Positions 459 through 52,958 of a stretch of 64,000 nucleotides of DNA are shown here, piece by piece. Source of the stretch: Candidatus Poseidoniaceae archaeon (GTDB lineage Archaea > Thermoplasmatota > Poseidoniia > Poseidoniales > Poseidoniaceae); NCBI GenBank assembly GCA_049606035.1, contig JBMYVD010000004.1, forward strand, positions 2,313 to 66,312, written 5' to 3'. The notes under the pieces are model-generated. The model saw nothing but the letters and a program-made list of their open reading frames with translations. It did not search any database and was not told the DNA's origin. The first letter of the stretch is position 1, and every line of letters begins with the position of its first letter. Both the position numbers and the translations under genes were made by a program.

Positions 459-520
459 ATGACCGCCAAAGTGTGACAAAGGCGTGCAACCTTTGAACAC
501 ACCGCAACTTTGAGTGCTAA

Positions 521-2194: not shown

Positions 2195-2231
2195 GTTTGT
2201 CGGGAGATACCTCGCCTCTATGAGTGTTAGG

Positions 2232-2838: not shown

Positions 2839-2847
2839 GCTTACAAC

Positions 2848-3480
2848 TCACTTCAGTGCATCAAGAATGTCGTTTGTGATTAAATCAATGGCTCTATCAC
2901 CGTTTATCACATGGAAGATTCCTTTAGATTCGTACCAATCTGCTAGAGGAGATGTCTGTTCATGGTATGCTTCTAGTCTACTCATCACTGTTTCTGCATT
3001 ATCGTCAGCACGTCTCTTGAATTCCTCACCACCACACGAATCGCAAATACCGTCTTTGGATGTTGGCTTGAAAGAGTCATGGTAAACTGCACCACAATCA
3101 GCACATGTGTACCTACCGCAAATCCTGTCTACAATTCTCTCATCAGGAACTTCGATTGAAATCACGTGTGAAACTGCTGTGATGTCTGCTAATGCCTCAG
3201 CCTGTGGCACAGTACGGGGAAAACCATCAAACATCACGCCGTTTTTTGCATCAGGTTCCTTGATTCTATCCTTTATGAGGTCGATTATCACTTGGTCTGG
3301 TACCAATTGTCCAGCATCCATGTATTTCTTCGCCTCTATCCCGGTTGGAGTCCCTGCAGAAACTGCAGCTCTAAGCATGTCGCCTGTGCTTACCTGAGGT
3401 AAGCCGGTTGAATCCATGATTCGCTGTGCTTGAGTCCCTTTTCCAGCCCCCGGAGGACCGAACAAAACTATGCTCTCCAT
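2848..3480 (-). CDS. adk: Adenylate kinase (long form with four-Cys zinc lid)
   Basis: P-loop MESIVLFGPPGAGKGTQ and lid CGRYTCADCG...CDSCGG. The start is set to the ATG at 3480; the track start at 3570 would overlap the upstream gene. Confidence 0.9.
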   Translation of the reverse strand: MESIVLFGPPGAGKGTQAQRIMDSTGLPQVSTGDMLRAAVSAGTPTGIEAKKYMDAGQLVPDQVIIDLIKDRIKEPDAKNGVMFDGFPRTVPQAEALADITAVSHVISIEVPDERIVDRICGRYTCADCGAVYHDSFKPTSKDGICDSCGGEEFKRRADDNAETVMSRLEAYHEQTSPLADWYESKGIFHVINGDRAIDLITNDILDALK

Positions 3481-3506
3481 GCCCCGGGCGTAGACTGCTT
3501 CTGTTT

Positions 3507-6500: not shown

Positions 6501-8282
6501 ATCGGTCCACGCTAATGTTATCTCAATACCGGATGTCGGATCCAAATCAAATTGGTAAAGTGTTGAAAATCCTGCATTGAGTGTTCGAGAATTGTCATGG
6601 TAAGTTGAAAGCACATTTCCGCCATATTCTGGCATTACGGAACCTGCAACAGAAACTTGCCCCCAACCTTCCTCTGAATTCGGAATATTTGGTGTGCCTA
6701 GGTCAACAGCACCGTTAACCGTGGCTGCTTTCAGAAGTGCTGCAGTAGGATTAGTGATTCCAACATCTTCTCTAATGAATTCACGAATTAGGGAAACTGA
6801 GCCCCCTGCCACGGCGGTAGCCTGACTGGAACCGGATAATGACATGTACATGTCATTGCCATTTGCGTGGGTTCCTGAACCACAACTTGTCCCTACTGGA
6901 ATTGCAGCTTCTTCAGCCCTTCCGGAACAAATAGCAACACCTGGGGCGACGATGTCAGGCTTGACCCTACCATCTAAAGAGGGACCAAGCGATGAAAAAT
7001 TAGCTACGCTTCCACTTGGATTGGTAGTAGAAGCACCTACTGATAGGACGTTTTTGGCAGTAGATGGGGCCATTACACTGGAAGAATTTTGAGAGGGGTC
7101 ATCTCCAGCAGAAAAGATTGGAAGGAATTCAGGATTATCGTTTACGAATACGTCAACAGACCTTGAGTCGGCCGTGTATGCACCGTAGTTTCCATTTAAT
7201 CCCCAAGCATTGACGGCTACTCTAGAACCTTCTTGTTCAGCATGATTTAGCATATCATAAATCGAACCGATTCTTCCGAAAATTCCTGTCGGGTTATGCT
7301 CCAAAGCATAAGCAACGATGTATGCGCCTGGAGCGATTCCTTCAGCACTTGAATCTCCAGTTCCATCCCCTGCCAGTGTTATTGCTACGTGTGTACCATG
7401 ACCACCGTTTGTGTCAGAGGGATTAGGGTCTAGCCCATATTGGGTGTAAACGCCGGCAATCCTGCCAAAAATATCGGGGTGGTCTTGGTCGATTCCAGTA
7501 TCTGTGAATGTGATTTTCTCACCAGAACCATCGAGGCCCAAGGATGAGTTTTTGAGTTCAGAAATTCCTACGATTGCTCCTGCTACGGCATTTGTTAACC
7601 TGATTTCATGTGCTTTTTCTGCCCAAATTATTCGACCATCTCTTGCTAGTGACTCTAGGTTGGGATATCCTTTAACTTCGCACAAATGCAATCCACACCA
7701 TGCTTCATCAGCCCCCATCGAAACTAAGTCTAGCGCTAGAAGTTCAAGTGAAGAAGCCTTCAAATCGGGAGCAGGAATTATTGAGATGAAATCTGTATTT
7801 TTATCCACCGATTCAGAAACTCTCCAACCAGGCATCATAGCCCCCGCCCATCTCACAGATTCATCGCTCTGAAGGTTAGCGAGGTCGTCAGGATGAGAGA
7901 GTCTAACTAGCCAATTTGATGGACCTAGATTGTCGAGTATAAAGAGATTGTACTCATCAACAATATCGTAGAGTAATGTTCCAGTGTGGTGCTTGAGTTG
8001 GATAATAGCCATCCCCGTCGTACGGTAATCATTAGAATCATCAAGGCGTGATTTAGGCAGATCATCTGTCAGTGGATCGAATGATCCAGATTCTAAATGT
8101 ATGTTATAATCAAGAGATTTTAGTGAAGATTGAGAGGTGTCAATCGGTTGTATTGCGTGCCAATTTGCGGCAGCAATCTCACGCTCGCTGACCTCTACAT
8201 CGATTGGATTGTCACTGGCTGTTGACAATGGTGCAAGGAGGAGTATTGCGAGGATGATTACTGTCCTTCGCTGTACCAACAT
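3507..8282 (-). CDS. Giant membrane-tethered subtilisin-like (S8) serine protease with CARDB-like repeats and a cytoplasmic Pro-rich tail
   Basis: Signal peptide MLVQRRTVIILAILLLAPLSTASD. S8 triad motifs FTDTGIDQDHPD, GGHGTHVA and LSGSSQATAVAGG lie at about nt 6753-7520. A P-domain-like stretch LAWTDVAGS..LVNDLDLKL follows, then repeated N(T/Q/V)GN.. beta-sandwich modules. A C-terminal TM (VIGALVLGVAIIARRIKK) precedes a 146-aa tail. Confidence 0.9.
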   Translation of the reverse strand: MLVQRRTVIILAILLLAPLSTASDNPIDVEVSEREIAAANWHAIQPIDTSQSSLKSLDYNIHLESGSFDPLTDDLPKSRLDDSNDYRTTGMAIIQLKHHTGTLLYDIVDEYNLFILDNLGPSNWLVRLSHPDDLANLQSDESVRWAGAMMPGWRVSESVDKNTDFISIIPAPDLKASSLELLALDLVSMGADEAWCGLHLCEVKGYPNLESLARDGRIIWAEKAHEIRLTNAVAGAIVGISELKNSSLGLDGSGEKITFTDTGIDQDHPDIFGRIAGVYTQYGLDPNPSDTNGGHGTHVAITLAGDGTGDSSAEGIAPGAYIVAYALEHNPTGIFGRIGSIYDMLNHAEQEGSRVAVNAWGLNGNYGAYTADSRSVDVFVNDNPEFLPIFSAGDDPSQNSSSVMAPSTAKNVLSVGASTTNPSGSVANFSSLGPSLDGRVKPDIVAPGVAICSGRAEEAAIPVGTSCGSGTHANGNDMYMSLSGSSQATAVAGGSVSLIREFIREDVGITNPTAALLKAATVNGAVDLGTPNIPNSEEGWGQVSVAGSVMPEYGGNVLSTYHDNSRTLNAGFSTLYQFDLDPTSGIEITLAWTDVAGSANAPQGESRLVNDLDLKLTAPDGTVYKGNVFANGFSTPNGVHDSVNNIERIKISPNSVLPSGKWQLTVNHAGGLEQAYGLVVTADATLDEKADLIVFDGSIFPSSASPLQNDLITLRLSWLNQGTSDAGQFKVKLEDLTEGTVVFEGTRQSLDAGQVDSITIYHSFASTGDHDMRLTVDVDSQIDEINDELSGVNNNIKEMTISVSALGVRLVALDENGQENVNMVNQTINPSVAEGYTWPVVLKHEGTGQQSVKLQLSQVQIPHPIRDDLLLPPEDTWSRTSDLSGPFTLSPMGQSGDSIYLNITMNDDDADLSGQTKRFAMAGTYVMDVTAKYSNNPTVKHTIRLKLVVEEVKDVQVAPAGTTGLEAIPGGNTAFSISVRNIGNSPAVYDLDCISENRWVVELGDSNSSSYSFEPLDILEYLPMQVRLYVPPVTDGLPAAGATDSITCTVTSETDLSLNVSETVTLTVKTLESFSTDLIDHEGIPVGPATTARDVNVDTAERLNLSLIIENTGNAPLDLTVRVNPELTTWTIQVRTDSQTNNREVTIEILPGQTGEVKFEVLVSPVAERNDENRLVIKTSQDVSNFIINETTLVVKDEIGLLISPPTNGTLDVTPNGEFTYTTLMVENTGNSQIGLEWSNSLPLDGWEVGFAAPPTILGPRESSELIVGIKAPVNEPTSTTFDIGIYVTINNGFETLQISESYAVEVQAGAFCSIEYDDESRPLLGIDRNDDSMQKITIRNVGNVPLDSELIANIDAKYWDVSLSMGEISNLAPGESVGAEVKVEPNDDTKAGIEELTLSCGSATATLEISVKNTQAQGGLFGIVSPTVGYSVIGALVLGVAIIARRIKKSAPRDTSGEELVAPDAHSIPDDGARMRAVMDSVVGQESLASGGVSAEEIADALAKSIPSLPPPSAPAMVPQGRPPSAVPAGRPSVAIPQGRPPAPTPQPPVPQAPAPQVGPPLPPGGLPPGWTMEQWQYYGHQWLAQQGQQ

Positions 8283-8325
8283 AAGTATCCGGAATGCGCA
8301 TGTGTACTTGAATACAAGCCCCTGC

Positions 8326-8343
8326 TGAGCCCTTCAGGGCTCA
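8326..8343 (-). terminator. GC-rich hairpin whose stem includes the gap stop codon (TGAGCCC-TGAA-GGGCTCA on the minus strand)
   Basis: Perfect 7-bp stem with a 4-nt loop. It sits between the gap stop (8341-8343) and the next gene's start (8282). Confidence 0.4.
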
Positions 8344-9375
8344 TTCAAACATCGATGCAATTGCTGCATCTGTTTTCTGAACAGATACACGCCAATCTGA
8401 TTCTGTACCCATCAGCGCACGTATTGCATCTATGTTCTCTGGAATTACATCGGACTCTTGATGGATTGCCTGGAAATAATACAGGTTGTTCCCAACCAAC
8501 TTGACTCCATCTTCCCATACGAAAATCTCGTGCAGGTCGCCCCATGTTCTACCCATGTCACGAGCGAATTCCATGACTTCTGCTGTTGTTGTAATTCCAG
8601 TCTCGGCGCCGTTCATAATTACAACACGTGGACAACTTGACCACATTTCGAGAACACTTTCGGTTGTCAACCCATGACCCTCTGGTAGAGTTGCAACAAT
8701 TGAGTGGACGTGCATAATTGTTGTAGGAACTGCCACCGCTAGAGAATTAATCTTGATTTCAGGTTTTACTGTCATTACGTCCGGACCGTGATGGCTTGGG
8801 ACCTTCAGAACAGGTTTGATTGCGTTGATAGGTCCTTTCTTTGAATCTCCGGGGTCTGCTGCTCTGCGTATCATTGTACACTCAACAGATAACTCCCCAC
8901 AATGCTCGTACAAAGGAACAAGTGTTCTGGATAAACCAGTCGTATTACATGAAACAACTCTCGTCCCTTCCACATTCATGTTTGCTGCATGGTTGGCACA
9001 CGAGGTGTAGGACATACCTGTCATTGCGTGTTTTTCGCCTCCTTGGAAAATCCACTTTATTCCTGCAGATTGATACTTTGCCTTATTTTCTGCACCAAGT
9101 TTTCCAGGTGAACAGTCGATGACAATATCTGCTACTGAGAGCAAATCTGAAAGACCACCATGACATTCGTATCCAGCACTGGCAAATGCTGCAATTTTTT
9201 CTTCGTCGTCAAAGGTACAATACAACGGGTATCCTTTTCTTACGGCTAAATCACAACCAAAGGCTGGGCGAGTTTTTGTTACTCCAATGATTTCCATGTC
9301 ATCTTGGCAAGCGACTGCATCAGCAACCCGCTTTCCAATTGTGCCGTATCCGTTAATTGCAACCTTGATGGTCAT
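8341..9375 (-). CDS. gap: Glyceraldehyde-3-phosphate dehydrogenase, archaeal type II
   Basis: MTIKVAINGYGTIGKRVADAV Rossmann start and catalytic VSCNTTGL. The 344-aa length is typical of the archaeal class. Confidence 0.9.
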   Translation of the reverse strand: MTIKVAINGYGTIGKRVADAVACQDDMEIIGVTKTRPAFGCDLAVRKGYPLYCTFDDEEKIAAFASAGYECHGGLSDLLSVADIVIDCSPGKLGAENKAKYQSAGIKWIFQGGEKHAMTGMSYTSCANHAANMNVEGTRVVSCNTTGLSRTLVPLYEHCGELSVECTMIRRAADPGDSKKGPINAIKPVLKVPSHHGPDVMTVKPEIKINSLAVAVPTTIMHVHSIVATLPEGHGLTTESVLEMWSSCPRVVIMNGAETGITTTAEVMEFARDMGRTWGDLHEIFVWEDGVKLVGNNLYYFQAIHQESDVIPENIDAIRALMGTESDWRVSVQKTDAAIASMFE

Positions 9376-9458
9376 GTCATTCCCTGTGAGGGGTGCCCTC
9401 GCGGACCTCTCATGAACCTTACTTCGCGAAATTTCTCCCTCCGATAGGCAAACTGTTC

Positions 9459-10997
9459 ATGAAAGAGAACACTACCCGGGGGTTGATGGCAACTATTGAA
9501 GAGGTCGTTGCGAGTTCTATGAGTATTAACTCAAGATTGCCTGCCCAACTTGAAAAAGCACTTGAGAGGAACATTGTTCTTAGAATCGGGTGGACAACAA
9601 ACGGCGACCCTGTTCCAAAAGATGGAGAAATGGGGCTATGTCCAAATCTACCTGCAGGATCAAAGGTACGAAGTCTAGGTTACCTCGGATCGTTCACAGC
9701 AGCATTTGGACAAGGTGGTTCATTCACTCACCAAGGCGATGTAGGCTCTTTCCTCGGTGCGGGAAACAATGGAAACAAAATCACTTGTGAGAGAACAGCA
9801 GGCAATTGTGCCGGTTTTGGCCAAAAAAGTGGTCGAATAACAATTCTTGACGGAACTGGAGATGATGCTGGTGCAAGGATGAGCGGAGGCTTGTTAGTGA
9901 TAAGAGGTGATTCTGGAATCAGAATCGGAGGTGGAATGTCAGGAGGTGACATAGTTGTCCACGGAGATGTTGGAGGTGACCCCGGTGCTGGTATGACTGG
10001 GGGGCGAATTATCATCAATGGACGTTGCCCAACCCCACCCCCAGGAGTCACTTTGAGGACACTGGATAAAGATGAACTCAAGAAGATTAACAAGGAACTT
10101 GGTGATGAGGGGTTACAAGTTCCGGCAGATGCTGTGTGCCTGGTTTCTGATGGTACAATCAGTGAAGGAATTATGGCAGATTGCAGAGACGACCTTTCTG
10201 GAATCTCAATTATTCCTATGACAACAAATCATAATCCTAGTTATTCTACATGTGATACTGTTGTTTTGCTTGGAGAGGAAGATTCACTCGCCCTTCCAAT
10301 TCCCTTGCTTCCCTATGTACCAAAGGGAGTTCAAGATGACTTATTCCACCCTTGTATTGTCAAGGAAAACCCTAGAGATTGCGACATTGTAATCATCGAC
10401 TCTAATAATATTGCAAGCGCTGCTGATTTGATTAAATCATCTGCAGGATTTGCGATTGATTTGGACTCACTTCCAAGGCTAGACGGAGCGGCTTTAGATG
10501 GACTACTTGTTGCACTAAAGTGTACCGCGCCCGCAAATTCGAAAGTAATTCTAGTCAGAGGAGTAGGACAAACTGCATCATTACATACAGACTCACAACA
10601 CCACGATGCAGATTGCGCTGTAAGCGTCCTAAATGATGGAAGTGGAATAAGTGCGGCTGCATCATTACCGATGGTGGGAAGGTCTGCTGCAACTAATTTA
10701 GAAGACGGCACTATAGCATCAATGTGGATTCCATGGTCTGCAACAAGTGAAGATTTGGCAATCCTTTGTGCCTCAAACGTGGCCTTCACAATTTGCCCTG
10801 CACCAGATGAGAATATTGCCGGATGGATTGCACAAGTCACATCCGGACTGTCCGCTCATCTTAACAGACTTGGCTTAGCTTCAATCGATTCACTGACAAG
10901 AGGTAACCTAAGAGCATTTGACCAAGATACAGCCGCTGTTAGTGGCCTAAGATTGGCTGGCTATGATAGGCCATTACCACACTGGTTCGCAAGGTGA
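9459..10997 (+). CDS. GXGXG-repeat (glutamate synthase alpha C-terminal / FwdC-like) domain protein with a C-terminal degenerate FMN-barrel-like region
   Basis: Beta-helix repeats GDVGSFLGAGNNGNKITCERTAGNCAGFGQKSGRITILDGTGDDAGARMSGGLLVIRGDSG..GGDIVVHGDVGGDPGAGMTGGRIIINGRC. The C-terminal 250 aa only loosely resemble glutamate synthase domain 2. The start is uncertain: GTG 9393, ATG 9459 or ATG 9486. Confidence 0.55.
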   Translation: MKENTTRGLMATIEEVVASSMSINSRLPAQLEKALERNIVLRIGWTTNGDPVPKDGEMGLCPNLPAGSKVRSLGYLGSFTAAFGQGGSFTHQGDVGSFLGAGNNGNKITCERTAGNCAGFGQKSGRITILDGTGDDAGARMSGGLLVIRGDSGIRIGGGMSGGDIVVHGDVGGDPGAGMTGGRIIINGRCPTPPPGVTLRTLDKDELKKINKELGDEGLQVPADAVCLVSDGTISEGIMADCRDDLSGISIIPMTTNHNPSYSTCDTVVLLGEEDSLALPIPLLPYVPKGVQDDLFHPCIVKENPRDCDIVIIDSNNIASAADLIKSSAGFAIDLDSLPRLDGAALDGLLVALKCTAPANSKVILVRGVGQTASLHTDSQHHDADCAVSVLNDGSGISAAASLPMVGRSAATNLEDGTIASMWIPWSATSEDLAILCASNVAFTICPAPDENIAGWIAQVTSGLSAHLNRLGLASIDSLTRGNLRAFDQDTAAVSGLRLAGYDRPLPHWFAR

Positions 10998-34682: not shown

Positions 34683-37600
34683 TCACTTACTATTTTGTAA
34701 ATATTGGTGACCATAATGGTTCCATTGTTCCATAGTCCATCCCTCGGGCAAGCCAGTTGGAGGCAATGGAGGTGGTGCAGCGCCTGCACCTTGTGCCGGA
34801 AGCGGAGCGTTCTGCACAGGAGATACAGGGGCAGCTTGCTGGATTTCAGGAACCAACTTTGTATCCATGTTCTCAATGACTTCAGCAGTCTGGTCAGATT
34901 CGTCAACTTCCTCGCCACGGCGAATCCTGCGCATCTGTACCATTGTCCAAACAGCGAACGACATTGAGACCAATGCAATCAGATACATGATTACTGATAA
35001 CTGTGAATCTGCAACCTGATTCGCAAGTGCAGTTCCATCTCTCTCAATTTCTTCTTTTACAAGGAGTGGTGAGATTGAGATTCTTTCTTTCTCAACTCCT
35101 GAGTCTAGAAGTAGTATCCTGTGTTCTAGTGTCTCACCTACTGCTCCGTCTGCTGTGGCGTCTAACTTAACTTGGGCCTTCTTCCCACTAGAAATTTCTA
35201 TTGACGAGGAGGAGATAGTTGCCCAGTCATCACCCGAAACAAGTCTTTGTAGAACAAATGTTACAGTTCCTGATGCTCCAGTGTTTCTAGCTTCGATGGT
35301 AAGTGATACTGCTTCATCTGGATTTGGAGTTGGGTTAGACCATTCCCATGTAGTATCCGCCGCTCTCAGACTAACTTCAGGACCTGTCAATGCTAGTGGC
35401 CAGGATGCCAATGGGTCAGAGACAGTGTTTCCTTCACTGTCGTAAGGATTTCCTGACTCATCTGAACCTGTAACCCAAATGTCGATTGTGTACGATGGAA
35501 GGAGCATGGTAGCACCTCCATCTGTCAAGTCGAGATATCCTGTCCAGAAGAATTGGTCTTCGAATGGTGTGGTATCGGGTAGAGGAGACGAACCTCTGCT
35601 GATTTCCGCCTCGCCTGCCCTAACAAGGTAATGCAATACTGCAGGATCTTCAAGAGAGAATCCTTGGTCATCTCGTGTTTCAAGCATGACTTGCAGGTTG
35701 TTTGCAAGGGAAATCGGAATTTCCTGATTAGGTTCTATTCCGCCTAAGGTTACGGCGTGAATTGTTGGCCTCTCACTGTCGACTGCCAACCTTAGCCTTG
35801 GTTTGAATTCGGATTCATCTTCAGCAAGTCCGGGCAGGTCAGTCAATTTAGCACGTAGATCGAGGTGACCACTCCTAACATCTGGCACAAGCATGTCAAT
35901 GCTGAAATATCCCCCTTCCCTGCTCGTAGTTGTCCATTCATTTTCAAAATCTCCAAGCGAGATTGTGAAGGACCCCGCTGGAGCGGGTGTCTCATCTTCG
36001 GAGAAAATTACTCTTCCACTGAAGCGAAGAGCTTGTCCAGCACCGATTAGGGTCTCATCAAATTCAGGATTGTAATGGTTAGTCCCATCTCGCAACTCAA
36101 TAGCAAGAATGTGACCTGGCTGGGTATCAAAGCGTAGGTCATTATCCAAACTCCATAAATCATTGCCCAGACCTGCTTTGTGTATGTTACATGGAAGGTC
36201 TGTGTCAATTCCACACGACTTATCCTCAATCCAGACTTTCGGAATGAAGTGCTCATTACCGTTCGTGTCCCATACCTCTGGGAAGTTCCAAGTGAGTTGG
36301 AATTTAATCGATACAATCATTCTGGATTGGCTCTCAGGGTCCAAAATAATGGAAGAGTATAGGTTGGAAACAGCCAATCCCGTACCTCCACTCTCAAGGT
36401 GCATCTGTGGCATTCCCTCCGAGTTTTGTGAAATGTAAGCAAAAATTGAGGTTTCATCGTCATCGAAGTCTCCGGCTAGAGCTAATTGCACAAATTCTAC
36501 GTCCCACCAGCCATTGATATCCGAAACCATGAAAGTTGCAGTATATGGAATTCCAGGATGTAATGGGGCCATATCATCGTGTCCTGTTATTGTTGAGTTA
36601 TCTACATCCATAATCGGTTCGAACTCCTCGCGAATTGTGTACCATGAGAGAGAGTTATCCCAATCGGGTTTGACTTCACCTGGCTTGTCACCACAGAATC
36701 CACCAGGTTCTATGTCACAAACTGGGGAACCACCCATGGCAATGGTATTATTTTGACCATCTTTCCCTGTAACATAGAAGGCTACTTTATCGCCATGAAC
36801 AAGCATCGAATCATCTATCAATCCGTTGAAAACGTTCAAACCACCCGGTAATATTTCAGGAGTGGTTAGAGTCTTTGAGCGATATTCAATCGGCTCTGGT
36901 AATCCATTGAAATTAGAATCATCACATCTTTCATTGACTCCTGCCTCACAACCAATCCAGTAGTGAAGGTCTACAGTTTGAGGAGGAGCAACCGAATCCT
37001 GGATGATTATTTCAATCGCTTGTCCGCCGGGAGAGGGAGGACCTTTGTGCATCTCTGATGATATTTCAGGACTTGCGAAGAGTACCAATGGTGCATTGCC
37101 GTCAAAAATTAACTTGATTGTATTGTAGCCCGGGTTGACATATGTTGAACCATTTTCAAGGTCGATTGCTTCTACGTATAATACCATGCCACCTGGTTCA
37201 GATTCTATTGGGGATGCAAAGGTCATATTATACTGGCCAAATCCAGGATTTCCTTCAGTATGAAGTACAGTAGGTTCTCCAATAGGGTCACCGTCGTAAG
37301 TTACATTTTGACCAATAACTCTGAGTGTAAATTCACCCGCCCTTGGTGAGAATGCTGAATTTTCAAAGTTGATTCCTCCAGTAATCGAGATATTCAATCC
37401 TCCTCGAACCCAATCGCCGGAAAACAATCCCCTTCCTGTTTCTTCCCAGACCCTCATACCGTCTAGTTGGATATCGTTCTCAATGTTCAGAGCGAGCGTA
37501 TCTGTTGTCCAACCACTCACTTGTGGACCTAGGTCATCGTTCAAGGAAACTATTGCTTCCATCTTCCTCTCATCATCCCATGTCCAATTGACACGGAGTG

Positions 37601-40055
37601 GCATTTTCACCGATACTATTCCCTCGCTGTCCATTGTTGAGGTACAATTTCCAACGTCGAACTCGACGATACCTCCGCCATCACTCTCAACAGAGCATGA
37701 ATCACCACGCATCCATCTAAATGCTGGGTTATCACCGTATGAATTATTCAAACCAATTGTAGCCTCAGTGACTCGGTCAACCAAGTCTCCGTGCGCTAAT
37801 CTGACGACTAAATTTCTGTATACACCATCAGGGGCGATCAAGCCACCCTCTAGGCTTGCATCCATCACTCTAGTGTTGAGTCTGTATTTGATGTCAAGAT
37901 CTGTAAGTTTGACTCTTCCTGGCGTATTTGCTTTGACTGCGATGGGTATTTCGACTGTTCCAACACCATTCTCCGGAATGTGGTCGTTAAATGCATCTAC
38001 GAGGCTTGGAGTTTCTGAAACAACTGTTCCAACCGGTGAATCATCAGATGCAACAACCGAACTTTCGTTCAAGAACAGTATTGATTTCCAGTCCCAGTCA
38101 CCATCGTCTCCAACATCTAACTGCGGAGCGTCAGGATACCCCTCTTCATACCATAGGATGAAGGAATCTACAGAAGGAGTGACTGTATTGTCAGTAGTGG
38201 CCAAGATGACGGAATAGAGGAGTTCATTTCCAGCACCAGCGGTGGAGAATGAAACTTCTTGATTGTTTGTTGCAGACTCCCACGTTGAACCGTTATCGTT
38301 GGAAACCATAACGCTAATGCTCGAACTTGATGGTTCGTCTGCAGTCCATACAGCTCTAACTTTTCCGACATTAGTTCCTGTTGACACCTTTTGGCTTGTC
38401 CAGTCTCCAGAAGTTTGGTATGAAGTAGCGTATTCAAGAGAAACCCACCAAGATACGGCAGATGAACCAATTAGTTGCATTTTCCAAACTAACTGATTTC
38501 CTGGGTGTGTGAAATGAATGGTTTGGTTCTTCTCGACTGCCTCCCAGTGAGTACCGTTATCCGCACTCACCCAGTAGTCAACTCTGTCGCCTTGCGATGG
38601 CGCAGACCAGTGGTTCATGAAATTAACAGCAAGAACTTCATCTTCAGTCTCGATTGTCTCTCCAATCCAAGTAGTGGTACCAGGAGCAGGGGTTGTAGGG
38701 TAAGATATACCAATTCCAAATTCACGGTAATAGAGAGTTTTTGAACTCCATGTCGAATACCCAGTATCGACAGTGATGATTCTTTCACCGTTGTAGAAGA
38801 GACCAAGACCTTTGGCAGAAATATCTTGAGTGCCGGTTTGTGGCACTAGTGAAGTAGAGCTGCCTGAAATCGCCCAAGCGCTCAGTTGGTCTGTGTCTTG
38901 GTAATAGCTACCTTTCATGCATCGCATGTAGAAGAAGCCAGCATGAACCACAAGACCGTGAACGTTACTGGAGGTTTTGCCACACTCGGTGCTAGAGGAT
39001 GAGCTTGAAGTGAATGAATACTGTTCTTCCCCTCGTGTGAATTGGCCATTATCTCCAAAGTCGTATGACACTATTCTCCTTTGTTGTCCATGAACAACCC
39101 AGATTTTGTCACTATCTCTGTCGTATGAGATTGCACTGTATTCGCCATATTGCGGTGAAATGTCGTAAGAGTCAACACAGCGCCAAATCCAATCATCTGA
39201 GACATCTATTGCCAAAACTCTACTGTGTTGGGTTGGATTGGAATTACTATACATGTACTTGTATGTTGTAAAAATCCCATACAGCATTTCTTCATCATTG
39301 ATTGTCCAATCTTTGAAACCGTATGATTTGTAATAGGTCGAACTAGGATCCTGTGGTAAAGTGCAACCCGCTTCTTGTTGTAAATCTACGACGATATCCC
39401 TAGAAACGTTATTCGGGTACATCCTTGTTACAACCTTGTCGAATTGAGTGCCAGTAAATGTTGACATGAATAGCCAATCATGGTTTTCAAGAATGGCGCC
39501 TTGACCTTGAGCCATCAAGTTTGAACTGGTCATTTTAACTTGGTTGCTGAACCTCGATTCGGTAGAGTTAGAGGTGTGTGGTTGGCGTATTGCAAAACTA
39601 CCATTATCTAGCCAAGCGTCTGAACCGGGTAGGGTTTCCTCACTCATGCCATGGGGTGCGAACTCAAAATCACCTGCATCAAATCCAAGTGTTAGGTCTC
39701 CACTTCGGGCGTCACTTTGACTAGAAACACCTTCCATCCATTCTTCGTATGTATCGGTTGATACTTGGGACCAACCTGTTGATGACGCACCTGATAGGGT
39801 GACCTGCACATCTAGTACTTCAGCCCCCTTCGGCATTGAAACTACAGTTGTCTTGTCTGCGCCACCTTGGTACAGTGCAATATTTTCAACACTCCCGTCA
39901 GAAAATGTGTAAATGTGACGAGATGAACTATTTGCTTCTACTTCGGTAATGAACATCTCTGAAAAAGGACTCATTGGTGTAAGTACGAGAATGAACACAA
40001 TCATTGACAGCGCGGCACGAGATGAAAATTTCTGCGACATATAACAACGACCCAT
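34683..40055 (-). CDS. Giant (about 1,790 aa) surface protein with Asp-box motifs, a C-terminal TM and a cytoplasmic Pro-rich tail
   Basis: Signal or anchor segment SRAALSMIVFILVLTPMSPFSE, with the start at ATG 40055 or 40040. Asp-boxes SADNGTHW and SNDNGSTW. TM segment IMYLIALVSMSFAVWTMVQMRRIRR. The tail ends LPEGWTMEQWNHYGHQYLQNSK. Confidence 0.85.
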   Translation of the reverse strand: MGRCYMSQKFSSRAALSMIVFILVLTPMSPFSEMFITEVEANSSSRHIYTFSDGSVENIALYQGGADKTTVVSMPKGAEVLDVQVTLSGASSTGWSQVSTDTYEEWMEGVSSQSDARSGDLTLGFDAGDFEFAPHGMSEETLPGSDAWLDNGSFAIRQPHTSNSTESRFSNQVKMTSSNLMAQGQGAILENHDWLFMSTFTGTQFDKVVTRMYPNNVSRDIVVDLQQEAGCTLPQDPSSTYYKSYGFKDWTINDEEMLYGIFTTYKYMYSNSNPTQHSRVLAIDVSDDWIWRCVDSYDISPQYGEYSAISYDRDSDKIWVVHGQQRRIVSYDFGDNGQFTRGEEQYSFTSSSSSSTECGKTSSNVHGLVVHAGFFYMRCMKGSYYQDTDQLSAWAISGSSTSLVPQTGTQDISAKGLGLFYNGERIITVDTGYSTWSSKTLYYREFGIGISYPTTPAPGTTTWIGETIETEDEVLAVNFMNHWSAPSQGDRVDYWVSADNGTHWEAVEKNQTIHFTHPGNQLVWKMQLIGSSAVSWWVSLEYATSYQTSGDWTSQKVSTGTNVGKVRAVWTADEPSSSSISVMVSNDNGSTWESATNNQEVSFSTAGAGNELLYSVILATTDNTVTPSVDSFILWYEEGYPDAPQLDVGDDGDWDWKSILFLNESSVVASDDSPVGTVVSETPSLVDAFNDHIPENGVGTVEIPIAVKANTPGRVKLTDLDIKYRLNTRVMDASLEGGLIAPDGVYRNLVVRLAHGDLVDRVTEATIGLNNSYGDNPAFRWMRGDSCSVESDGGGIVEFDVGNCTSTMDSEGIVSVKMPLRVNWTWDDERKMEAIVSLNDDLGPQVSGWTTDTLALNIENDIQLDGMRVWEETGRGLFSGDWVRGGLNISITGGINFENSAFSPRAGEFTLRVIGQNVTYDGDPIGEPTVLHTEGNPGFGQYNMTFASPIESEPGGMVLYVEAIDLENGSTYVNPGYNTIKLIFDGNAPLVLFASPEISSEMHKGPPSPGGQAIEIIIQDSVAPPQTVDLHYWIGCEAGVNERCDDSNFNGLPEPIEYRSKTLTTPEILPGGLNVFNGLIDDSMLVHGDKVAFYVTGKDGQNNTIAMGGSPVCDIEPGGFCGDKPGEVKPDWDNSLSWYTIREEFEPIMDVDNSTITGHDDMAPLHPGIPYTATFMVSDINGWWDVEFVQLALAGDFDDDETSIFAYISQNSEGMPQMHLESGGTGLAVSNLYSSIILDPESQSRMIVSIKFQLTWNFPEVWDTNGNEHFIPKVWIEDKSCGIDTDLPCNIHKAGLGNDLWSLDNDLRFDTQPGHILAIELRDGTNHYNPEFDETLIGAGQALRFSGRVIFSEDETPAPAGSFTISLGDFENEWTTTSREGGYFSIDMLVPDVRSGHLDLRAKLTDLPGLAEDESEFKPRLRLAVDSERPTIHAVTLGGIEPNQEIPISLANNLQVMLETRDDQGFSLEDPAVLHYLVRAGEAEISRGSSPLPDTTPFEDQFFWTGYLDLTDGGATMLLPSYTIDIWVTGSDESGNPYDSEGNTVSDPLASWPLALTGPEVSLRAADTTWEWSNPTPNPDEAVSLTIEARNTGASGTVTFVLQRLVSGDDWATISSSSIEISSGKKAQVKLDATADGAVGETLEHRILLLDSGVEKERISISPLLVKEEIERDGTALANQVADSQLSVIMYLIALVSMSFAVWTMVQMRRIRRGEEVDESDQTAEVIENMDTKLVPEIQQAAPVSPVQNAPLPAQGAGAAPPPLPPTGLPEGWTMEQWNHYGHQYLQNSK

Positions 40056-46822: not shown

Positions 46823-46843
46823 GCCCTGTAAGGGCTTGTTTTT
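46820..46843 (+). terminator. Hairpin plus T-run terminator after the MBL gene
   Basis: AAGCCCT-GTA-AGGGCTT overlaps the TAA stop and is followed by GTTTTTGG. Confidence 0.55.
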
Positions 46844-46882
46844 GGTGAAACCCTAAGAGGGTGGTTCACTCTCTCTCGCACA

Positions 46883-47920
46883 ATGAGGTCACAGCGCAAG
46901 TCCAATAGTGACCTCGCAGTCAGTGAAGTCATCGGTGTCGTGATGCTTCTGGCGATGGTTATCACAATGATGGGAGGGGTGTTTGTATTCCTCACACCAT
47001 ACGTCAATGATTTTCAAGACAATACCGCATGGTCAAACGCAAATGGAATTGCTGAAAGGCTAGATGGTAGGATTGATGTCGTTGCAGGAGCAAGTGCTGA
47101 CACCGGACTTAGAACTACAATTCCCCTAACTATGAGCTCAATTTCTCCTATCATTAGTGCAGAAGTGTGGACTGTATCAGCAGATTTGACTGCAGGAGAA
47201 ATTGTAACAGTCGAGTACATTAATCAAACTACATTCGGTATTACCTCGGAAAATGAAACAGCCGACCGTGCAATAATTTGGACTGAAGGTGGGGAAGTCG
47301 AAATAACATTCAATGAAACTTACGAAGAGGTTTTGATAACCCATAATTTGAGTCTTGCAGACATTTATATCGTAACCATATTCGATGGAGAAAACGAGAT
47401 TCACAAGCATGCAAAGATACCAATTTCAGGATTAATGGTAAAGACCAAAGTTCAGACAGGTGAACATTCAATTGGACTACTGAACGATGCTCGATACGAC
47501 AAATTCTCTGATGAAACCTGGAGTATAACTTCAGCCCCTGACATGAATATAGAAGAATTATTCGACGGCACAATGAGGGCTAGTTTGTCTCTGAGAGACG
47601 TAGATACTGCAGGAGCGATTCCAGACGGCAGAAACGCTGTATTTGATATCCGTTCAGAAGGGCCAATTACTCTCTTTAGTGGTGATGCATGGAACTTCAG
47701 ATTTACATTTGAATCATCATTAGGACCAACAGTCGCCCCACAGATGACTGAAGGTTGGTTAACCGACTACAACCTCCACAGAGCGTCTAACACTCTAGAC
47801 CAGCATAGAGGTATCAGCCCGTGGTTAAGGGCAAGCGGAATCGATGGTCTGACAATAGACCACGGCAATTCTGTAATAGATCTTGAAATCGAATTGCAAT
47901 TGGTGGAGGTTAGCAGATGA
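46883..47920 (+). CDS. Archaeal type IV pilin-like protein (class III signal peptide, DUF1628/Pilin_N-like N-terminus) with a large globular domain
   Basis: MRSQRKSNSDLAVSEVIGVVMLLAMVITMMGGVFVFL matches the archaeal pilin N-terminal pattern (..R(A/G)VSPVIGVVLLVAIT..). Its stop overlaps the next start as ATGA. Confidence 0.7.
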   Translation: MRSQRKSNSDLAVSEVIGVVMLLAMVITMMGGVFVFLTPYVNDFQDNTAWSNANGIAERLDGRIDVVAGASADTGLRTTIPLTMSSISPIISAEVWTVSADLTAGEIVTVEYINQTTFGITSENETADRAIIWTEGGEVEITFNETYEEVLITHNLSLADIYIVTIFDGENEIHKHAKIPISGLMVKTKVQTGEHSIGLLNDARYDKFSDETWSITSAPDMNIEELFDGTMRASLSLRDVDTAGAIPDGRNAVFDIRSEGPITLFSGDAWNFRFTFESSLGPTVAPQMTEGWLTDYNLHRASNTLDQHRGISPWLRASGIDGLTIDHGNSVIDLEIELQLVEVSR

Positions 47921-49965
47921 TTCGCAACAACCTCCGCAGAGACGAGGAAGCAGTAAGCGCGGCTGTAGCCACGGTCCTACTCTTTGGTGGAGTAGTTTCA
48001 ATTATTGGAATTATGTTACTTTCATTGATGCCGGTTATACAAGAATTGGAGGGTTCGCTCAAAAGAAATGATATGCAAGCCCAAATGGAAATAATGGCAC
48101 ACGAGGTCACATTACTTTCTGAATCAGGATTACCCGGTGACTCAAGTCAAGTCGAACTCATTCCGGTCGATGGAGAACTCAGATGGGATAGATTCAGAGG
48201 AGGGATGTGGTATTCTGCATCTTGGTATGAGGGTGATACTTTCAGAATCCAAGGAGCTTTAGACTTGGATAGAGATATCGATGTGAGGCATGCTGAAAGC
48301 AACGTACAAGCGATTTGCTATGAGGACATGAGACTGGGGCCGGATAGGCCATTCATCTTTACACCGAATAATCAAACCGATACAGTACTAGTAACTCCCA
48401 AACACGGTTTGACAATACCGCTTGGCCCTGTACAAATTGAACACGCTGGGATAGGCCACTCCCTTTCAATAGGAGAAGTCATGCAACTAGATTCAGACTA
48501 CGAAATAAAATCCAGTCATGATTTAGTTGGCTTACAAATAAAAGGTGATTCAGGAGTTGCACTGATACCACCTTCCAAGGCAAATCCCGCAACTGGCAAG
48601 GGGCAACATTGGGCAATTCCTCTACCATCGGGAGAAACTACCATCGAAGTCTTCGCTGACGATGACATCCTTGTTCAATGGCATACTCTCACCAATTCTG
48701 GACAAGAAGCGGTGCCTCAAACCAATGCGGTAAGGATAGCAAATTCATGGACAAAAACATTCAATCTGTCCGAGATTAGTTTAGTGGAGATAGTTACTGA
48801 CGTAGATGCGCATCTGATGATTTACCATGGCGATTCTGGCAAAACATCTCTGCTGGGAGAAGAGGGAAATTATCTCTCTAAGCACTTCATAGCACCTTAT
48901 CAATCTGGAAATTTGTCATTCTCTAATCCTAGCCAAAATGCTGCAACTATTACATGGAAAAATGGCGGTATATCAGTACCTGCCAATCAAACTATCGAAG
49001 TCGAGTGGCCTCCTTCGAACATCGACAGCGCTGCAATCTTAGAAAGTAGCGAGAATGTTCTTGTCCAGTTGAAACTAAATGGCAAAGGAATGACATTCTT
49101 GCCAGCTATTGACACAGGTCAAATCACTGGTCTAGAATTCATTGAAGATAATTCACAGACGATAATCAACTATTCCTCTGAGTATGATGACTATCAATCA
49201 AAATTAGCAAAAGATGGAAATTCAGGGGTTCTAGCATTAGAGGATGATGGAGCCATGCGTTGTATTGCAATAGACCAGACTGCATCAGGATGGATCTCAA
49301 CAACTCTGCCGTGGAAATCAATGAATGGTATACCAGAAGGGCAAATCATTACTTCTTGGAGAGACGGCGACCACCCGGCAAGTATTGAGATTACTTTGAT
49401 CGGAACAGAAGGAGATGCCACCCACGCTAACCTAGCCACTGCATGGGCATTCCATATCTCGAGACTAACTTACGAATTTGACACCTCGATTACTGGACTA
49501 GAAGTTGCATGGTCTGCTGGTGCAGTTGTTACAAATCATCCCGAGTTAGACCCGACGATACTAGTTGGGCCAACAGATAGACAAGGTCCCGGACCAAGGT
49601 TTAGCGCAACGATTCCTTCTATGCACCCTACTAAAACATCAGTTACTGGTAGCGGGATAATGGATCTTGACATTGAATTATCCATGAGAGAAAGTTTAGC
49701 ATCAACTACAGCATTTGACGTTAGGAGAGGATGGGTAGGACCTTACGGAGATGCGGTTGCTTCTTGGGCAAGCACGAGCCTAGAAACCTCTGAAGACTGG
49801 ATAGTTAATCCAGGTAGAATTGACTTACTTACTGACTATGTTGGCTGGGTACCTGTTCCTACAGTTGGACCTAGCGAAGCCGTATGGCACACAGCAGGGC
49901 AACCAATTCAGTTCAATCTACAAATAAGTAGCCTGAATGTTGAAATTTCGGAGGCAGGGTCATGA
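47917..49965 (+). CDS. Large (682 aa) type IV pilin-like protein
   Basis: MIRNNLRRDEEAVSAAVATVLLFGGVVSIIGIMLLSL has a charged head, an AVS motif and a hydrophobic helix. ATGA overlaps occur at both ends (47917-47920 and 49962-49965). Confidence 0.6.
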   Translation: MIRNNLRRDEEAVSAAVATVLLFGGVVSIIGIMLLSLMPVIQELEGSLKRNDMQAQMEIMAHEVTLLSESGLPGDSSQVELIPVDGELRWDRFRGGMWYSASWYEGDTFRIQGALDLDRDIDVRHAESNVQAICYEDMRLGPDRPFIFTPNNQTDTVLVTPKHGLTIPLGPVQIEHAGIGHSLSIGEVMQLDSDYEIKSSHDLVGLQIKGDSGVALIPPSKANPATGKGQHWAIPLPSGETTIEVFADDDILVQWHTLTNSGQEAVPQTNAVRIANSWTKTFNLSEISLVEIVTDVDAHLMIYHGDSGKTSLLGEEGNYLSKHFIAPYQSGNLSFSNPSQNAATITWKNGGISVPANQTIEVEWPPSNIDSAAILESSENVLVQLKLNGKGMTFLPAIDTGQITGLEFIEDNSQTIINYSSEYDDYQSKLAKDGNSGVLALEDDGAMRCIAIDQTASGWISTTLPWKSMNGIPEGQIITSWRDGDHPASIEITLIGTEGDATHANLATAWAFHISRLTYEFDTSITGLEVAWSAGAVVTNHPELDPTILVGPTDRQGPGPRFSATIPSMHPTKTSVTGSGIMDLDIELSMRESLASTTAFDVRRGWVGPYGDAVASWASTSLETSEDWIVNPGRIDLLTDYVGWVPVPTVGPSEAVWHTAGQPIQFNLQISSLNVEISEAGS

Positions 49966-50432
49966 CGAGTAGATTAGTCGAGGACGAGGCAGGGGCAAGT
50001 ACTGAACTTGGCTATATTTTCACTTTCATGCTCGGTGTATTGTTCCTCTCAATGTTTAGCGTCTGGGCGTTTGGTCTAGAAACCTCAACAAGAGAAAACT
50101 GGAATACAACCGCCGTTGATGTAAACATGGCAGATATTGCTGCTGCTGTCGAAAGGGCCGATACGGCAAGCAGACAAGACTCCAGTGTGAGTTACGCAGA
50201 AGTTGTGACATGGAGATTAACGGAAGCCGATGAAACAGAATTTGTTCTCACCCTAGATGACACGGGCCTATCACTTGACCATAGTGAGAATGAACTGGAC
50301 AGAGAGGTTTCGATATCAGGAACAGGATATGGCACGTATGATGGAAGAATCAACCTTTCAGGAACCGCAGAAATTTGGGTCGTCTACCACGAAGGTGTGA
50401 CCTATCTATCAACAACTAGACCAGATTTCTGA
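49962..50432 (+). CDS. Small type IV pilin-like protein
   Basis: MTSRLVEDEAGASTELGYIFTFMLGVLFLSMFSVWAF resembles the ..GVST.LGYVLTLGI.. N-termini of minor pilin-like proteins in haloarchaeal pilus loci. That comparison is from memory and unverified. Confidence 0.55.
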   Translation: MTSRLVEDEAGASTELGYIFTFMLGVLFLSMFSVWAFGLETSTRENWNTTAVDVNMADIAAAVERADTASRQDSSVSYAEVVTWRLTEADETEFVLTLDDTGLSLDHSENELDREVSISGTGYGTYDGRINLSGTAEIWVVYHEGVTYLSTTRPDF

Positions 50433-52958
50433 TCATCTGCCCATCACAGCGGTATGTACCATCATCTGTACTTCCCGCATTCTAGTCTGAGCACCTAATT
50501 CTCTGAAGACCGATAGTGCTCTTTGAAGGTATTCCATCCTTCGTTGTCTATCGGGGGCGACTCCACCTAATCTTGCTAATAGTTCACCGATTTGCATTCT
50601 CAAATCGTTTGCTTCAGAGATAACCAGTGCTTCTCGATATCTTTCCAATGCTTCTTCGATTCTACCGCTGTCTTGTAGAACCTCGCCCAACAAAATTGAA
50701 ACTTCAACCAAGGCAAGCGGGTCTCCTGCTTCCCCCATTGTTGATAGTGCATCTGTATAGTGATGTAAAGCCAAATCTGAATCGCCAGACTTTGCGTAAT
50801 ATCTTCCAAGTACAGCTCTTGCTCTAGCATGCAATATTGCATCACCGCTAGATTCAGACCTCTCATAGGAGGACAACGCGTGGTCTCTTGCTCTATCACT
50901 CTCACCCAAATCGAGTAACGCTCTTGCCAATACAATCTGAGCAGGAATCAATTCTGGAGAATCATCTCCATTTAGAATACTCTCGACTTCACCATAGGCC
51001 TCCAATGCCTTCGTTTTATCTCCGTTTCTTCGAAGGATATATCCCATATTGTTGTAGGAGCGAGCAGCACCTACCGCATCACCCATAGAGATGAATAATT
51101 CTAGGGACTTCCTGTGCATTCCAAGGCTTCCTTCTGAATCTCCACGCTTCAGAGCAATGTCTGCTAAATTAGAAACAATGTCTGCGATAACATCGTCCAA
51201 ACCTGCTGCCTCGGCTGGTGGTTTTGCTTGGTTGAATGCTTCTTCAGCTTCATCGAAGCGGCCGAGAAGGGCCAGTACTTCTCCCCTGAGTCTATCAACT
51301 CTGCATGCGCTGTCTGCACCTACTGATTTTGTATCAATAGATTCCAATAAACCTAACAGCTCAATGTGTCCTTCTTTAATCAAGTCTCTACCTTGCTCTA
51401 CTACCAATTTTGTAGCATCTTCGTGCCTTGAAGAAGAAATTAAGTGGTAGATTAACTCAAGAGCAATTTGGCTTGATTTAGTTTGTTTATTGTACCAGGC
51501 AACTGCTTTGTTGTGAAGATCTTCTTTAGACTGTTTGTCCAGACTTTGTAGAAGGAATTCTCTGATTAAGTCGTGAACATCATAAGTGCCTGAATCAGCA
51601 TTGCGGGCTAGACCGGATTCGACTAGCGAATCTAGTTCGTCAGTGTTCAGACCTTGTTCCGTTAGGGCCTCTAATTCGATAGGTTCACGAAATACGGATA
51701 GAGCTCCGAGTAAGCGCTTTTGCTCGCCAGACAGTTTAGAGAAAATCTCGATATTAACATAATTTTCCAGTGATTCGTGGAACGCACCTGCTGATGCTCC
51801 ACGATTAATCAATTCCAATACAAGAGGATGACCACGACTTAAGGAGTGTATGTACAGTAATTTTTCTTGGTCCAAGTCGTCAAAGGCAGAGAGAAGGGAC
51901 CTAGTTGATTCTTGGTCCAAGCCTTCTAGGGGGAGAACCAATGAAACAATTCTACCATCAGCGTCTTTGAGTGGGACGACCTCCTTGAAGGAGCGAGAAA
52001 AGATTACCAGTCCAACGTCACCTTCACACTCGACAAGGCCTCTGGATAGTGCTTGAATTGTTTGGTGTAGGGTCTTATCACTTACCTTGTGGTAATCATC
52101 GATAACGATTAGAGCTGGAGAACTAGCAAGAGAATCAACGATTATTCTTGCTGCATCAGCAGACTTTGGAACCGGAGTAGCAGAAATGTAATCAGCTAAC
52201 ATTGAATCTCCAATATTCGATAACCAATCAGCAATGCTCTCCAAGAATGCTCGACTTCCCTCCCAATCTTGACATCTATGATACATCAAATTCCTTCGAT
52301 GCATGAATGATTCAATCACTTTTGCTGCCATAGAAGTTTTTCCAATACCTGCTATCCCAGGAACCATCAAAGTCGTTGACCTAGCCTCAAGAAGGTTGAC
52401 CATGTTTTCTAATTCCGTTGACCGGCCATAGAAATGCCTCAATCTTGGCAAATCGCCAAGGCTAGTGACAAGTTGTTTCTCAACATGCTTCGAGAGGTCT
52501 CTTTCTACCAGGTCCGCTGAAAGGGAGCGGACATCCAGGACCCCGTTGTCATCTAGATACCTTATGACATCGACAGGCCTCATAGTAAACGGCAACTTAT
52601 CTTGGATTTCTCCAAGCGAAGATGCTATAGTGTTCCCACCAGGTAGGATTGCTCTGAGTTGGAATTCTCTAAGGTTCTTCCATGTCTCATCAGCCAATTT
52701 CATCCCAGATTCTGTCAAAAAGTAGGCTTTACGCTTTCTGCTAACACCTTGAACGTGGGCCTGCCTCTCGATTAGAAGTCCTTGGTCCTTCAATCCTGCA
52801 ATAGCCCTTGGAACGTTAGAGCGAGCAATCGCAACCGCATTTGCAATCCCCATTTGTGATAGAGCAAATGGAACTTCGACTGAATTCATAAAGTCGGAAA
52901 AATCAGAGAGGTGTAGCAAAATTCTCTCTTGAACACCCGGCTTTGGTCTGGTCGCCAT
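50433..52958 (-). CDS. wHTH - STAND/AAA ATPase - TPR signal-transduction protein
   Basis: The N-terminal winged-helix-like region (LSQMGIANAVAIARSNVPRAIAGLKDQGLLIERQ) is an inferred assignment. Walker A LMVPGIAGIGKTSMA and Walker B ALIVIDDYHKV. The C-terminal third consists of TPR-like repeats (ARSYNNMGYILRRNGDKTKALEAY etc.). Confidence 0.8.
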   Translation of the reverse strand: MATRPKPGVQERILLHLSDFSDFMNSVEVPFALSQMGIANAVAIARSNVPRAIAGLKDQGLLIERQAHVQGVSRKRKAYFLTESGMKLADETWKNLREFQLRAILPGGNTIASSLGEIQDKLPFTMRPVDVIRYLDDNGVLDVRSLSADLVERDLSKHVEKQLVTSLGDLPRLRHFYGRSTELENMVNLLEARSTTLMVPGIAGIGKTSMAAKVIESFMHRRNLMYHRCQDWEGSRAFLESIADWLSNIGDSMLADYISATPVPKSADAARIIVDSLASSPALIVIDDYHKVSDKTLHQTIQALSRGLVECEGDVGLVIFSRSFKEVVPLKDADGRIVSLVLPLEGLDQESTRSLLSAFDDLDQEKLLYIHSLSRGHPLVLELINRGASAGAFHESLENYVNIEIFSKLSGEQKRLLGALSVFREPIELEALTEQGLNTDELDSLVESGLARNADSGTYDVHDLIREFLLQSLDKQSKEDLHNKAVAWYNKQTKSSQIALELIYHLISSSRHEDATKLVVEQGRDLIKEGHIELLGLLESIDTKSVGADSACRVDRLRGEVLALLGRFDEAEEAFNQAKPPAEAAGLDDVIADIVSNLADIALKRGDSEGSLGMHRKSLELFISMGDAVGAARSYNNMGYILRRNGDKTKALEAYGEVESILNGDDSPELIPAQIVLARALLDLGESDRARDHALSSYERSESSGDAILHARARAVLGRYYAKSGDSDLALHHYTDALSTMGEAGDPLALVEVSILLGEVLQDSGRIEEALERYREALVISEANDLRMQIGELLARLGGVAPDRQRRMEYLQRALSVFRELGAQTRMREVQMMVHTAVMGR

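Follow-up and report, generated by a model that had tools for sequence, protein, structure and literature searches.

Euryarchaeal type IV pili of clade 2, or 'System 2' (the PilB3/PilB4-type loci of Haloferax volcanii), are the closest described systems to the genes reported here. Euryarchaeal ATPase/TadC modules use pilins encoded in trans, and long all-beta minor pilins of 250-550 aa (arCOG02911-type) have been described (Makarova 2016, PMC4858521); the same work links the DUF2341 domain to PilY1-type tip adhesins. System 2 loci carry several distinct pilin-like proteins together with large adhesin-like proteins, and some of the pilin-like proteins have no class III signal peptide (SPIII) motif (PMC13705601, PMC4858521). 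As far as the literature consulted shows, the cassette proteins of these systems appear to lack experimental characterisation in any archaeon. In this study, we analysed three consecutive genes, designated P1 (345 aa), P2 (682 aa), and P3 (156 aa) and together called the trio, in a stretch of 64,000 nucleotides (the window) on contig C4 of a metagenome-assembled genome (MAG) of Candidatus Poseidoniaceae (Marine Group II; genome label G000). The original prediction, which was made from the letters of the window, described them as coupled type IV pilin-like genes of unusual size with no assembly machinery nearby. Our comparative evidence suggests, with a probability of roughly 0.7, that P1-P3 are class III signal peptide (type IV pilin-like) proteins encoded by the detached front of a clade 2/System 2 pilus operon, and that they are accessory or adhesive parts assembled in trans by an ATPase/TadC module on another contig, C10.

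The trio shares with clade 2/System 2 pili the Pfam families DUF7289 and DUF7266, the occurrence of more than one kind of pilin-like gene in a system, minor pilins of great length and all-beta fold, and encoding in trans. The type of linked ATPase is also alike, although its matches to PilB3_N and PilB3_C are weak and below cutoff. The differences are that the cassette is split here, with three genes at a fixed site between the genes for an MBL-fold hydrolase (MBL) and an HTH-STAND-TPR protein (STAND) and two genes with the motor, and that P2 exceeds the size range of arCOG02911. Since it is established that this clade encodes pilins in trans and has long minor pilins, neither the missing motor neighbours nor the large sizes, both of which had been regarded as anomalous in the original prediction, are out of the ordinary. 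PilA1-6 of Haloferax volcanii, which work with PilB3-PilC3, carry class III signal peptides, are assembled in trans, and function in adhesion, as is predicted or presumed of the trio. The PilA proteins differ in being small, with a canonical Pilin_N head, and in serving as major pilins; P1-P3, a coupled, heterotrimer-like set with large ectodomains, are more like minor pilins.

Pilin-like features of the three proteins

Direct reading of the window confirmed the three open reading frames (ORFs), their N-termini, and the two ATGA overlaps exactly as they had been predicted (Table 1). Each protein has exactly one hydrophobic segment, which is N-terminal, and the remainder is acidic. N-glycosylation sequons occurred at 0.7-1.3 per 100 aa in P1-P3, as against 0.31 in the cytoplasmic proteins of the window. 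In the Pfam scan, P1 matched DUF7289 with 30.9 bits (cutoff 27) and P3 matched DUF7266 with 29.0 bits (cutoff 27.6) over nearly its full length (residues 8-142); the P1 match to Pilin_N, at 23.9 bits, was below the cutoff of 25.2. The first 66 residues of P2 were homologous to the P1 head (hhalign E=2.3e-5). Furthermore, many P1 homologs have precomputed matches to both Pilin_N and DUF7289, and P3 homologs carry the NCBI name 'DUF7266 family protein'.

The heads were near-invariant over 36 orthologous loci, even where the proteins were only 30-46% identical, and the N-terminal helix was better conserved than the ectodomain. With a slash at the putative cleavage site, the consensus was D-x-[AG]/VSE[VI][IL]GV for P1, [DE][DE]A/VSAA[VI]ATVLLF for P2, and [DE]x[GA]A/[SA][TI]E[LM]GY for P3. 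The small residue at -1 was kept throughout the order, and P2 matched the FlaFind-type pattern. When a loose FlaFind-type regular expression was applied to all ORFs of the genome, it mostly caught Sec signal peptides and was used as evidence for P2 only. Judged by these motifs, cleavage of the leader is likely for P2, probable for P1, and uncertain for P3. The Pfam matches of P1 and P3, the motif of P2, and the conserved residue at -1 thus bear out the type IV pilin-like nature that was originally proposed.

Several searches returned nothing that would refine this assignment. No NCBIfam model matched P1, P2, or P3, profile searches of PDB sequences with the trio proteins gave no meaningful match, and the Pfam scan found no DUF2341 domain in P1-P3. 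Three word-indexed homolog searches yielded only unnamed Poseidoniales proteins and reached no other lineages. No paralogs of P1-P3 were found in the genome by BLAST or phmmer, and a literature search on the DUF names found nothing.

Both junctions within the trio combine GGAGG with an ATGA overlap, which matches the pattern of translational coupling. The hairpin and T-run that follow the MBL gene may separate the trio transcript from that gene. No promoter was identified before P1, the bacterial-type promoter and terminator scan being uninformative for an archaeon. On the other side, the stop of P3 directly adjoins the stop of the convergent STAND gene. As a separate observation, the open frame of the P2 ortholog in three distant genomes (L050, L052, and L054) contains no ATG, GTG, or TTG ahead of the conserved EAVS, which suggests either a non-canonical start in coupled reinitiation or assembly errors.

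Relatives of the trio beside a pilus motor

DUF7266 was scanned in 301 genomes of the phylum Thermoplasmatota and was found in 43 genomes of 30 genera, and 20 loci from other families were compared. In 16 of these 20 loci, the DUF7266 gene lay within about 5 kb of an ortholog of the C10 ATPase, together with orthologs of both C10 TadC genes; a PibD-like gene was also present in 3 of the 16. The DUF7266-linked ATPases were 46-58% identical to the C10 ATPase and only 30-34% identical to the ATPase of a second module on contig C5.

The low-GC locus L076 was the most informative of these relatives. It encodes, in order, a DUF7289-like protein of 397 aa, a DUF7289-like protein with Pilin_N of 361 aa, a DUF7266 protein of 155 aa, the ATPase, TadC-b, TadC-a, two small proteins, and a 928-aa protein. 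The ATPase matched T2SSE and, weakly and below cutoff, PilB3_N and PilB3_C. P1, P2, and P3 correspond, by type and by their place in the row, to the three genes at the head of L076, and P1 aligned with the first of them over 205 columns reaching into the beta domain (hhalign, probability 90%, E=1.9e-6). The C10 locus keeps the L076-like order from the ATPase on, i.e., ATPase, TadC-b, TadC-a, and two small proteins. These small proteins begin with ..AQIHILE.. and ..GQMLLATG.., and those of L076 begin with ..AQMFILE.. and ..GQLLLTSG... Since the C10 locus keeps everything from the ATPase onward and the relatives have trio-type genes in front of it, the trio would be the detached front of that operon. 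Within Poseidoniales itself, no trio operonic with a PilB3-like ATPase and TadC was seen in the window or elsewhere (36 loci).

In another family (L070, L071, L073, and L079), all of the pilin-like genes lie downstream of the TadC genes, and their products reach 1000-1950 aa, so that large size is not peculiar to the trio. Some further observations were made at loci of this kind. The four pilin-like proteins of one L070 set (1003, 508, 360, and 660 aa) each have a Hint/intein-like domain, to which the 660-aa protein adds Big_9/cadherin-like domains. It is unusual for Hint modules to be found throughout one pilin-like set. Two tandem C10-type ATPase genes head the pilus operon at L070 and L079, both in one Thermoplasmatota family, and one of the tandem ATPases has an N-terminal zinc-ribbon-like CxxC...CxxC motif. 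At L086, a DUF7266-like N-terminus (39 bits) heads an 8,370-aa open frame about 7 kb from ArlI/ArlJ orthologs; the frame would encode, next to an archaellum motor, a giant protein that starts with a pilin-like segment.

Pilus machinery elsewhere in the genome

A whole-genome search confined the T2SSE and T2SSF matches to contigs C5, C10, and C31. Contig C4 therefore has no ATPase or platform gene, and Pfam scans of the other window ORFs, which are housekeeping genes, giant surface proteins, and proteases, were likewise empty of such genes, in agreement with the original prediction. The search for pilB/pilC-type genes that it had proposed led to the ATPase/TadC modules on C10 and C5 and to the archaellum on C31 (Table 1). 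The prediction had also asked for a prepilin peptidase, whose absence from the genome would have spoken against it. A candidate class III signal peptidase of the PibD/FlaK family was found on C54, where the protein carries the candidate catalytic motifs WLD and GGAD.

Table 1 Positions of the trio, its surroundings, and related genes. Positions without a contig or locus name refer to the window; a slash marks the putative cleavage site.
Feature	Position	Strand	Description
P1	46883-47920	+	345-aa ORF; DUF7289-type pilin-like; putative leader MRSQRKSNSDLA/VSEVIGVV...
P2	47917-49965	+	682-aa ORF; large pilin-like; putative leader ...RRDEEA/VSAAVATVLLFGG; helix, then tandem beta-sandwich domains (predicted)
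P3	49962-50432	+	156-aa ORF; DUF7266 family pilin-like; N-terminus ...DEAGA/STELGYIFTFMLGV; cleavage motif atypical
P1/P2 junction	47905-47920	+	GGAGG 47905-47909, 7-nt spacer, ATGA stop/start overlap 47917-47920; read from sequence
P2/P3 junction	49950-49965	+	GGAGG 49950-49954, 7-nt spacer, ATGA stop/start overlap 49962-49965; read from sequence
Hairpin AGCCCT-GTA-AGGGCT and T-run	46823-46845	+	straight after the MBL stop, inside the 60-nt spacer before P1
STAND	50433-52958	-	HTH-STAND(AAA_16/nSTAND)-TPR protein
1,790-aa giant	34683-40055	-	anchored giant surface protein; no Pfam domain detected; co-distributed with the trio
Paralogs of the 1,790-aa giant	C18:15713-20083; C40:4178-6454		about 25% identical
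C10 module	C10		ATPase of 510 aa (T2SSE 92 bits; PilB3_C 21 bits, below cutoff), TadC-b, TadC-a, two overlapping small pilin-like ORFs
C5 module	C5:44983-47541		third type IV filament (T4F) module, with RPA-like genes upstream; ATPase compact (411 aa), two TadC-like genes, both very short (194 and 243 aa)
Pilin_N gene on C5	C5:53403		canonical; 6 kb from the C5 ATPase; major-pilin candidate; N-terminus resembles that of P2
Pilin_N gene on C22	C22		canonical; major-pilin candidate
Archaellum operon	C31		complete, with its own ArlF/G-like gene pair
Candidate signal peptidase	C54:4522-5502		326 aa; Arc_PepC_II 31.7 bits (cutoff 29.9); Peptidase_A24 25.1 bits (cutoff 26.5)
Hint-bearing pilin-like set	L070 (G141:C33) 100-10984	-	four pilin-like genes
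Tandem C10-type ATPases	L070 12953-16490; L079 72-4120		head of a pilus operon
DUF7266-like head	L086 (G059:C7) ~9995-10270		start of the 8,370-aa open frame

Structure models

In the AlphaFold2 models, a helix spans residues 8-62 of P1 and 10-59 of P2. The all-beta ectodomain that follows in P1 was confident at about 85-190 (predicted local distance difference test 80-90), and the confident beta region of P2 covers 150-440. The N-terminal helices themselves and the remaining regions were of low confidence in both models. Thus, P1 and P2 are each predicted to combine a long N-terminal helix with a beta-rich globular domain. Foldseek searches of the PDB matched P1 with nothing but generic Ig/FN3 folds, and the matches of P2, to jelly-roll, collagen-binding, and CBM-like folds, were weak (E ~3e-4, TM ~0.1); neither sequence nor fold searches of the PDB matched any of the trio proteins to a pilin. 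The structural comparison that the original prediction had suggested for the globular parts thus gave generic or weak matches.

Distribution and synteny in Poseidoniales

The order giant, giant, MBL, P1, P2, P3, STAND, giant was fixed in 30 genus-level loci, and 6 genomes from other genera of Poseidoniales carry the trio block as well, identically ordered and coupled. This conservation in order and coupling is therefore more than chance, and the synteny expected in other MAGs was found. Across the genus-level loci, identity was 65-80% for the trio vs 80-94% for MBL and STAND.

The trio was present in 7 and missing from 9 of 16 genomes from outside the genus (hereafter non-genus genomes). In the five trio-negative genomes inspected (L063-L067: G037, G039, G029, G035, and G030), MBL and STAND abut directly in convergent orientation with almost no spacer, and the rest of the block is intact (MBL, STAND, and the 1,894-aa, 1,446-aa, and 1,698-aa giants); only the 1,790-aa giant is also gone. 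The trio is a clean presence/absence cassette of 3.5 kb. STAND was found in every Poseidoniales genome examined, at 48-58% identity; it is invariably flanked by the 1,446-aa giant on one side and by MBL or the trio on the other. STAND or MBL as a dedicated partner of the trio was rejected, because both persist and adjoin each other without it and STAND is universal. The trio-negative genomes also have a second STAND paralog, which is about 26% identical.

Among the 16 non-genus genomes, the presence or absence of the C5-type TadC and that of the 1,790-aa giant each agreed with the trio in all 16 (the same 7 positive), and that of the C10-type TadC agreed in 15; ArlJ did not co-occur with the trio. 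In a tree of STAND, all 9 trio-negative genomes, which are small (1.3-1.6 Mb), fell in one clade with 100/100 support. The whole co-occurrence pattern therefore amounts to a single gain or loss and is statistically weak, and its use as strong evidence for a link with the C5- or C10-type modules was downgraded accordingly. The 1,790-aa giant may possibly be a partner of the trio, as the co-distribution weakly suggests. The paralogs of this giant on C18 and C40 belong to a family that is distributed like the trio and is absent from the streamlined trio-negative clade.

Proposed assembly of the trio

On the reading that we prefer, the front of a clade 2/System 2 operon would have moved to the site between the MBL and STAND genes in Poseidoniales, while the ATPase, both TadC genes, and the two small pilin-like genes stayed on C10. 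The three genes would be translated in fixed proportion through Shine-Dalgarno and ATGA coupling, which can be read directly at the junctions, and the predicted N-terminal helix would insert each protein in the membrane. The C54 peptidase would then remove the leader after the conserved Ala/Gly, less certainly for P3, and the C10 ATPase and platform would assemble the trio in trans. The small pilin-like proteins would be built in alongside it, as would a PilA-like major pilin, for which the Pilin_N genes on C5 and C22 are candidates. Present in low abundance, P1-P2-P3 would finally act as a complex that primes the pilus or sits at its tip, and attachment would be mediated by their large beta-sandwich ectodomains, chiefly that of P2.

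Cleavage, assembly by C10 rather than C5, and the priming or tip role are what we infer from these comparisons, the last of them on the model of minor-pilin complexes and modular pilins in bacteria. The minor-pilin complexes PilVWX-FimU with PilY1 and GspHIJK are operon-encoded, stoichiometric sets of pilin-like proteins with a tip or priming role, and Streptococcus sanguinis PilB is reportedly a modular pilin with a bulky extra domain grafted on the pilin helix. The analogy of the bacterial complexes with the trio is functional only; no sequence or fold homology with it was detected, and P3 of the window carries no DUF2341. One hint of an adhesin comes from L070, in which the DUF7266 protein is fused to the PilY1-associated DUF2341. 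A tip-adhesin role for the trio is plausible by this analogy.

Several findings weigh against the reading as a whole or against parts of it. With regard to the heads, P2 scored only 22.8 bits against DUF7289, below the cutoff, and cleavage is not assured for two of the proteins: P1 of the window has Leu at -2, where its orthologs have R, E, G, S, or H (A/G at -1 being conserved), and P3, although its Ala is invariant and its Glu at +3 conserved, falls outside the strict FlaFind-type motif. The motif check that had been proposed at the outset thus came out mixed: in favour of P2, against P3 under the strict pattern, and with this reservation for P1. With regard to the link with the motor, the direct hhalign comparison of P3 with the DUF7266 protein of L076 was weak, so that the two are connected through their common Pfam model; the small C10 ORFs matched DUF7261 faintly (14.5 bits or no score), so that their assignment to DUF7261/7287/7288 is tentative; and the co-occurrence pattern cannot tell C10 from C5 as the motor of the trio. 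With regard to adhesion, two thirds of the P2 model was of low confidence and its C-terminal third was not modellable, and Foldseek against the PDB indicated no specific adhesin fold for P1 or P2, its matches being too weak to name a ligand.

Alternative explanations

The trio might form a short, membrane-anchored complex other than a filament, such as a stalk of the pseudopilus or bindosome type or an anchor that organises the envelope and perhaps holds the 1,790-aa giant, the helix serving only for anchoring or for the assembly of a few subunits. Such a complex would fit the position of the trio inside a conserved block of giant surface-protein genes, the shared presence/absence pattern of the giant, and the departure of P3 and of the window P1 from the strict cleavage motif; pilin-like proteins without the SPIII motif were also noted in System 2 loci by a 2026 census (PMC13705601). 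However, where the trio is missing, the surface-gene block is unchanged but for the loss of the 1,790-aa giant, the co-occurrence of this giant represents a single event, and the relatives of the trio in other families are operonic with a pilus ATPase and platform. We consider this explanation unlikely, and the different, non-filament surface complex that the original prediction had offered is not favoured.

Assembly by the C5 module, with its two short TadC proteins and compact ATPase, instead of the C10 module appears decidedly unlikely. The C5-type TadC occurs in exactly the same 7 of the 16 non-genus genomes as the trio, and the Pilin_N gene near the C5 ATPase has a P2-like N-terminus, but the phyletic match is one event, and the ATPases adjacent to DUF7266 genes are closer to that of C10 than to that of C5 in the identities given above. 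It is very unlikely that the trio proteins are ordinary signal-anchored (type II) membrane proteins whose pilin likeness is superficial. Their Pfam scores lie near the cutoffs, and the PDB gave no pilin match; against this, the motif is kept order-wide at about 30% overall identity, many P1 homologs match Pilin_N at the family level, and the relatives are operonic with ATPase, TadC, and peptidase genes.

Most improbable of all is that the trio belongs with ArlF and ArlG, which are accessory proteins of the archaellum. These two are likewise encoded in tandem and carry a beta-sandwich domain behind an N-terminal helix, and one P1 homolog was named 'FlaG/FlaF family flagellin' by JGI, but the C31 archaellum operon has ArlF/G-like genes of its own, the phyletic pattern differs (no ArlJ match in four trio-positive genomes, i.e., G026, G028, and G034, 93-98% complete, and G025, 83%, and an ArlJ in the trio-negative G035), and so does the genomic linkage, which is with a C10-type ATPase (weak PilB3_C match) and not with ArlI.

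Significance for Marine Group II

Few archaea are as abundant in surface oceans as those of Marine Group II, which are still uncultured. Their attachment potential has been ascribed to archaella and thrombospondin-like proteins (Rinke 2018, PMC6461757), and the literature that we searched contained no description of a non-archaellar pilus in Marine Group II. According to the gene content reported here, many Poseidoniales appear to have a complete but dispersed type IV pilus system, which comprises five pilin-like accessory genes and major-pilin candidates besides the motor, the platform, and the peptidase, and one streamlined clade of the order is without this whole system. The arrangement of the trio is most likely a lineage-specific layout of a catalogued, experimentally uncharacterised archaeal pilus type and not a new kind of machine.

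It is also conceivable, although rather unlikely, that the split of the operon is functional, the trio being an independently regulated module that, only under certain conditions and together with the 1,790-aa giant, adds the 682-aa ectodomain to pili or to a short stalk resembling them. If so, it would be a switchable attachment device that separates particle-associated from free-living (trio-less, streamlined) Marine Group II lineages. On the reading of the trio as a detached part of a clade 2/System 2 pilus, three widespread 'hypothetical proteins' now have a probable context. The interest of the finding is modest and lies mainly in the ecology of Marine Group II, for which it provides a concrete gene set with which particle attachment can be weighed against a free-living lifestyle.

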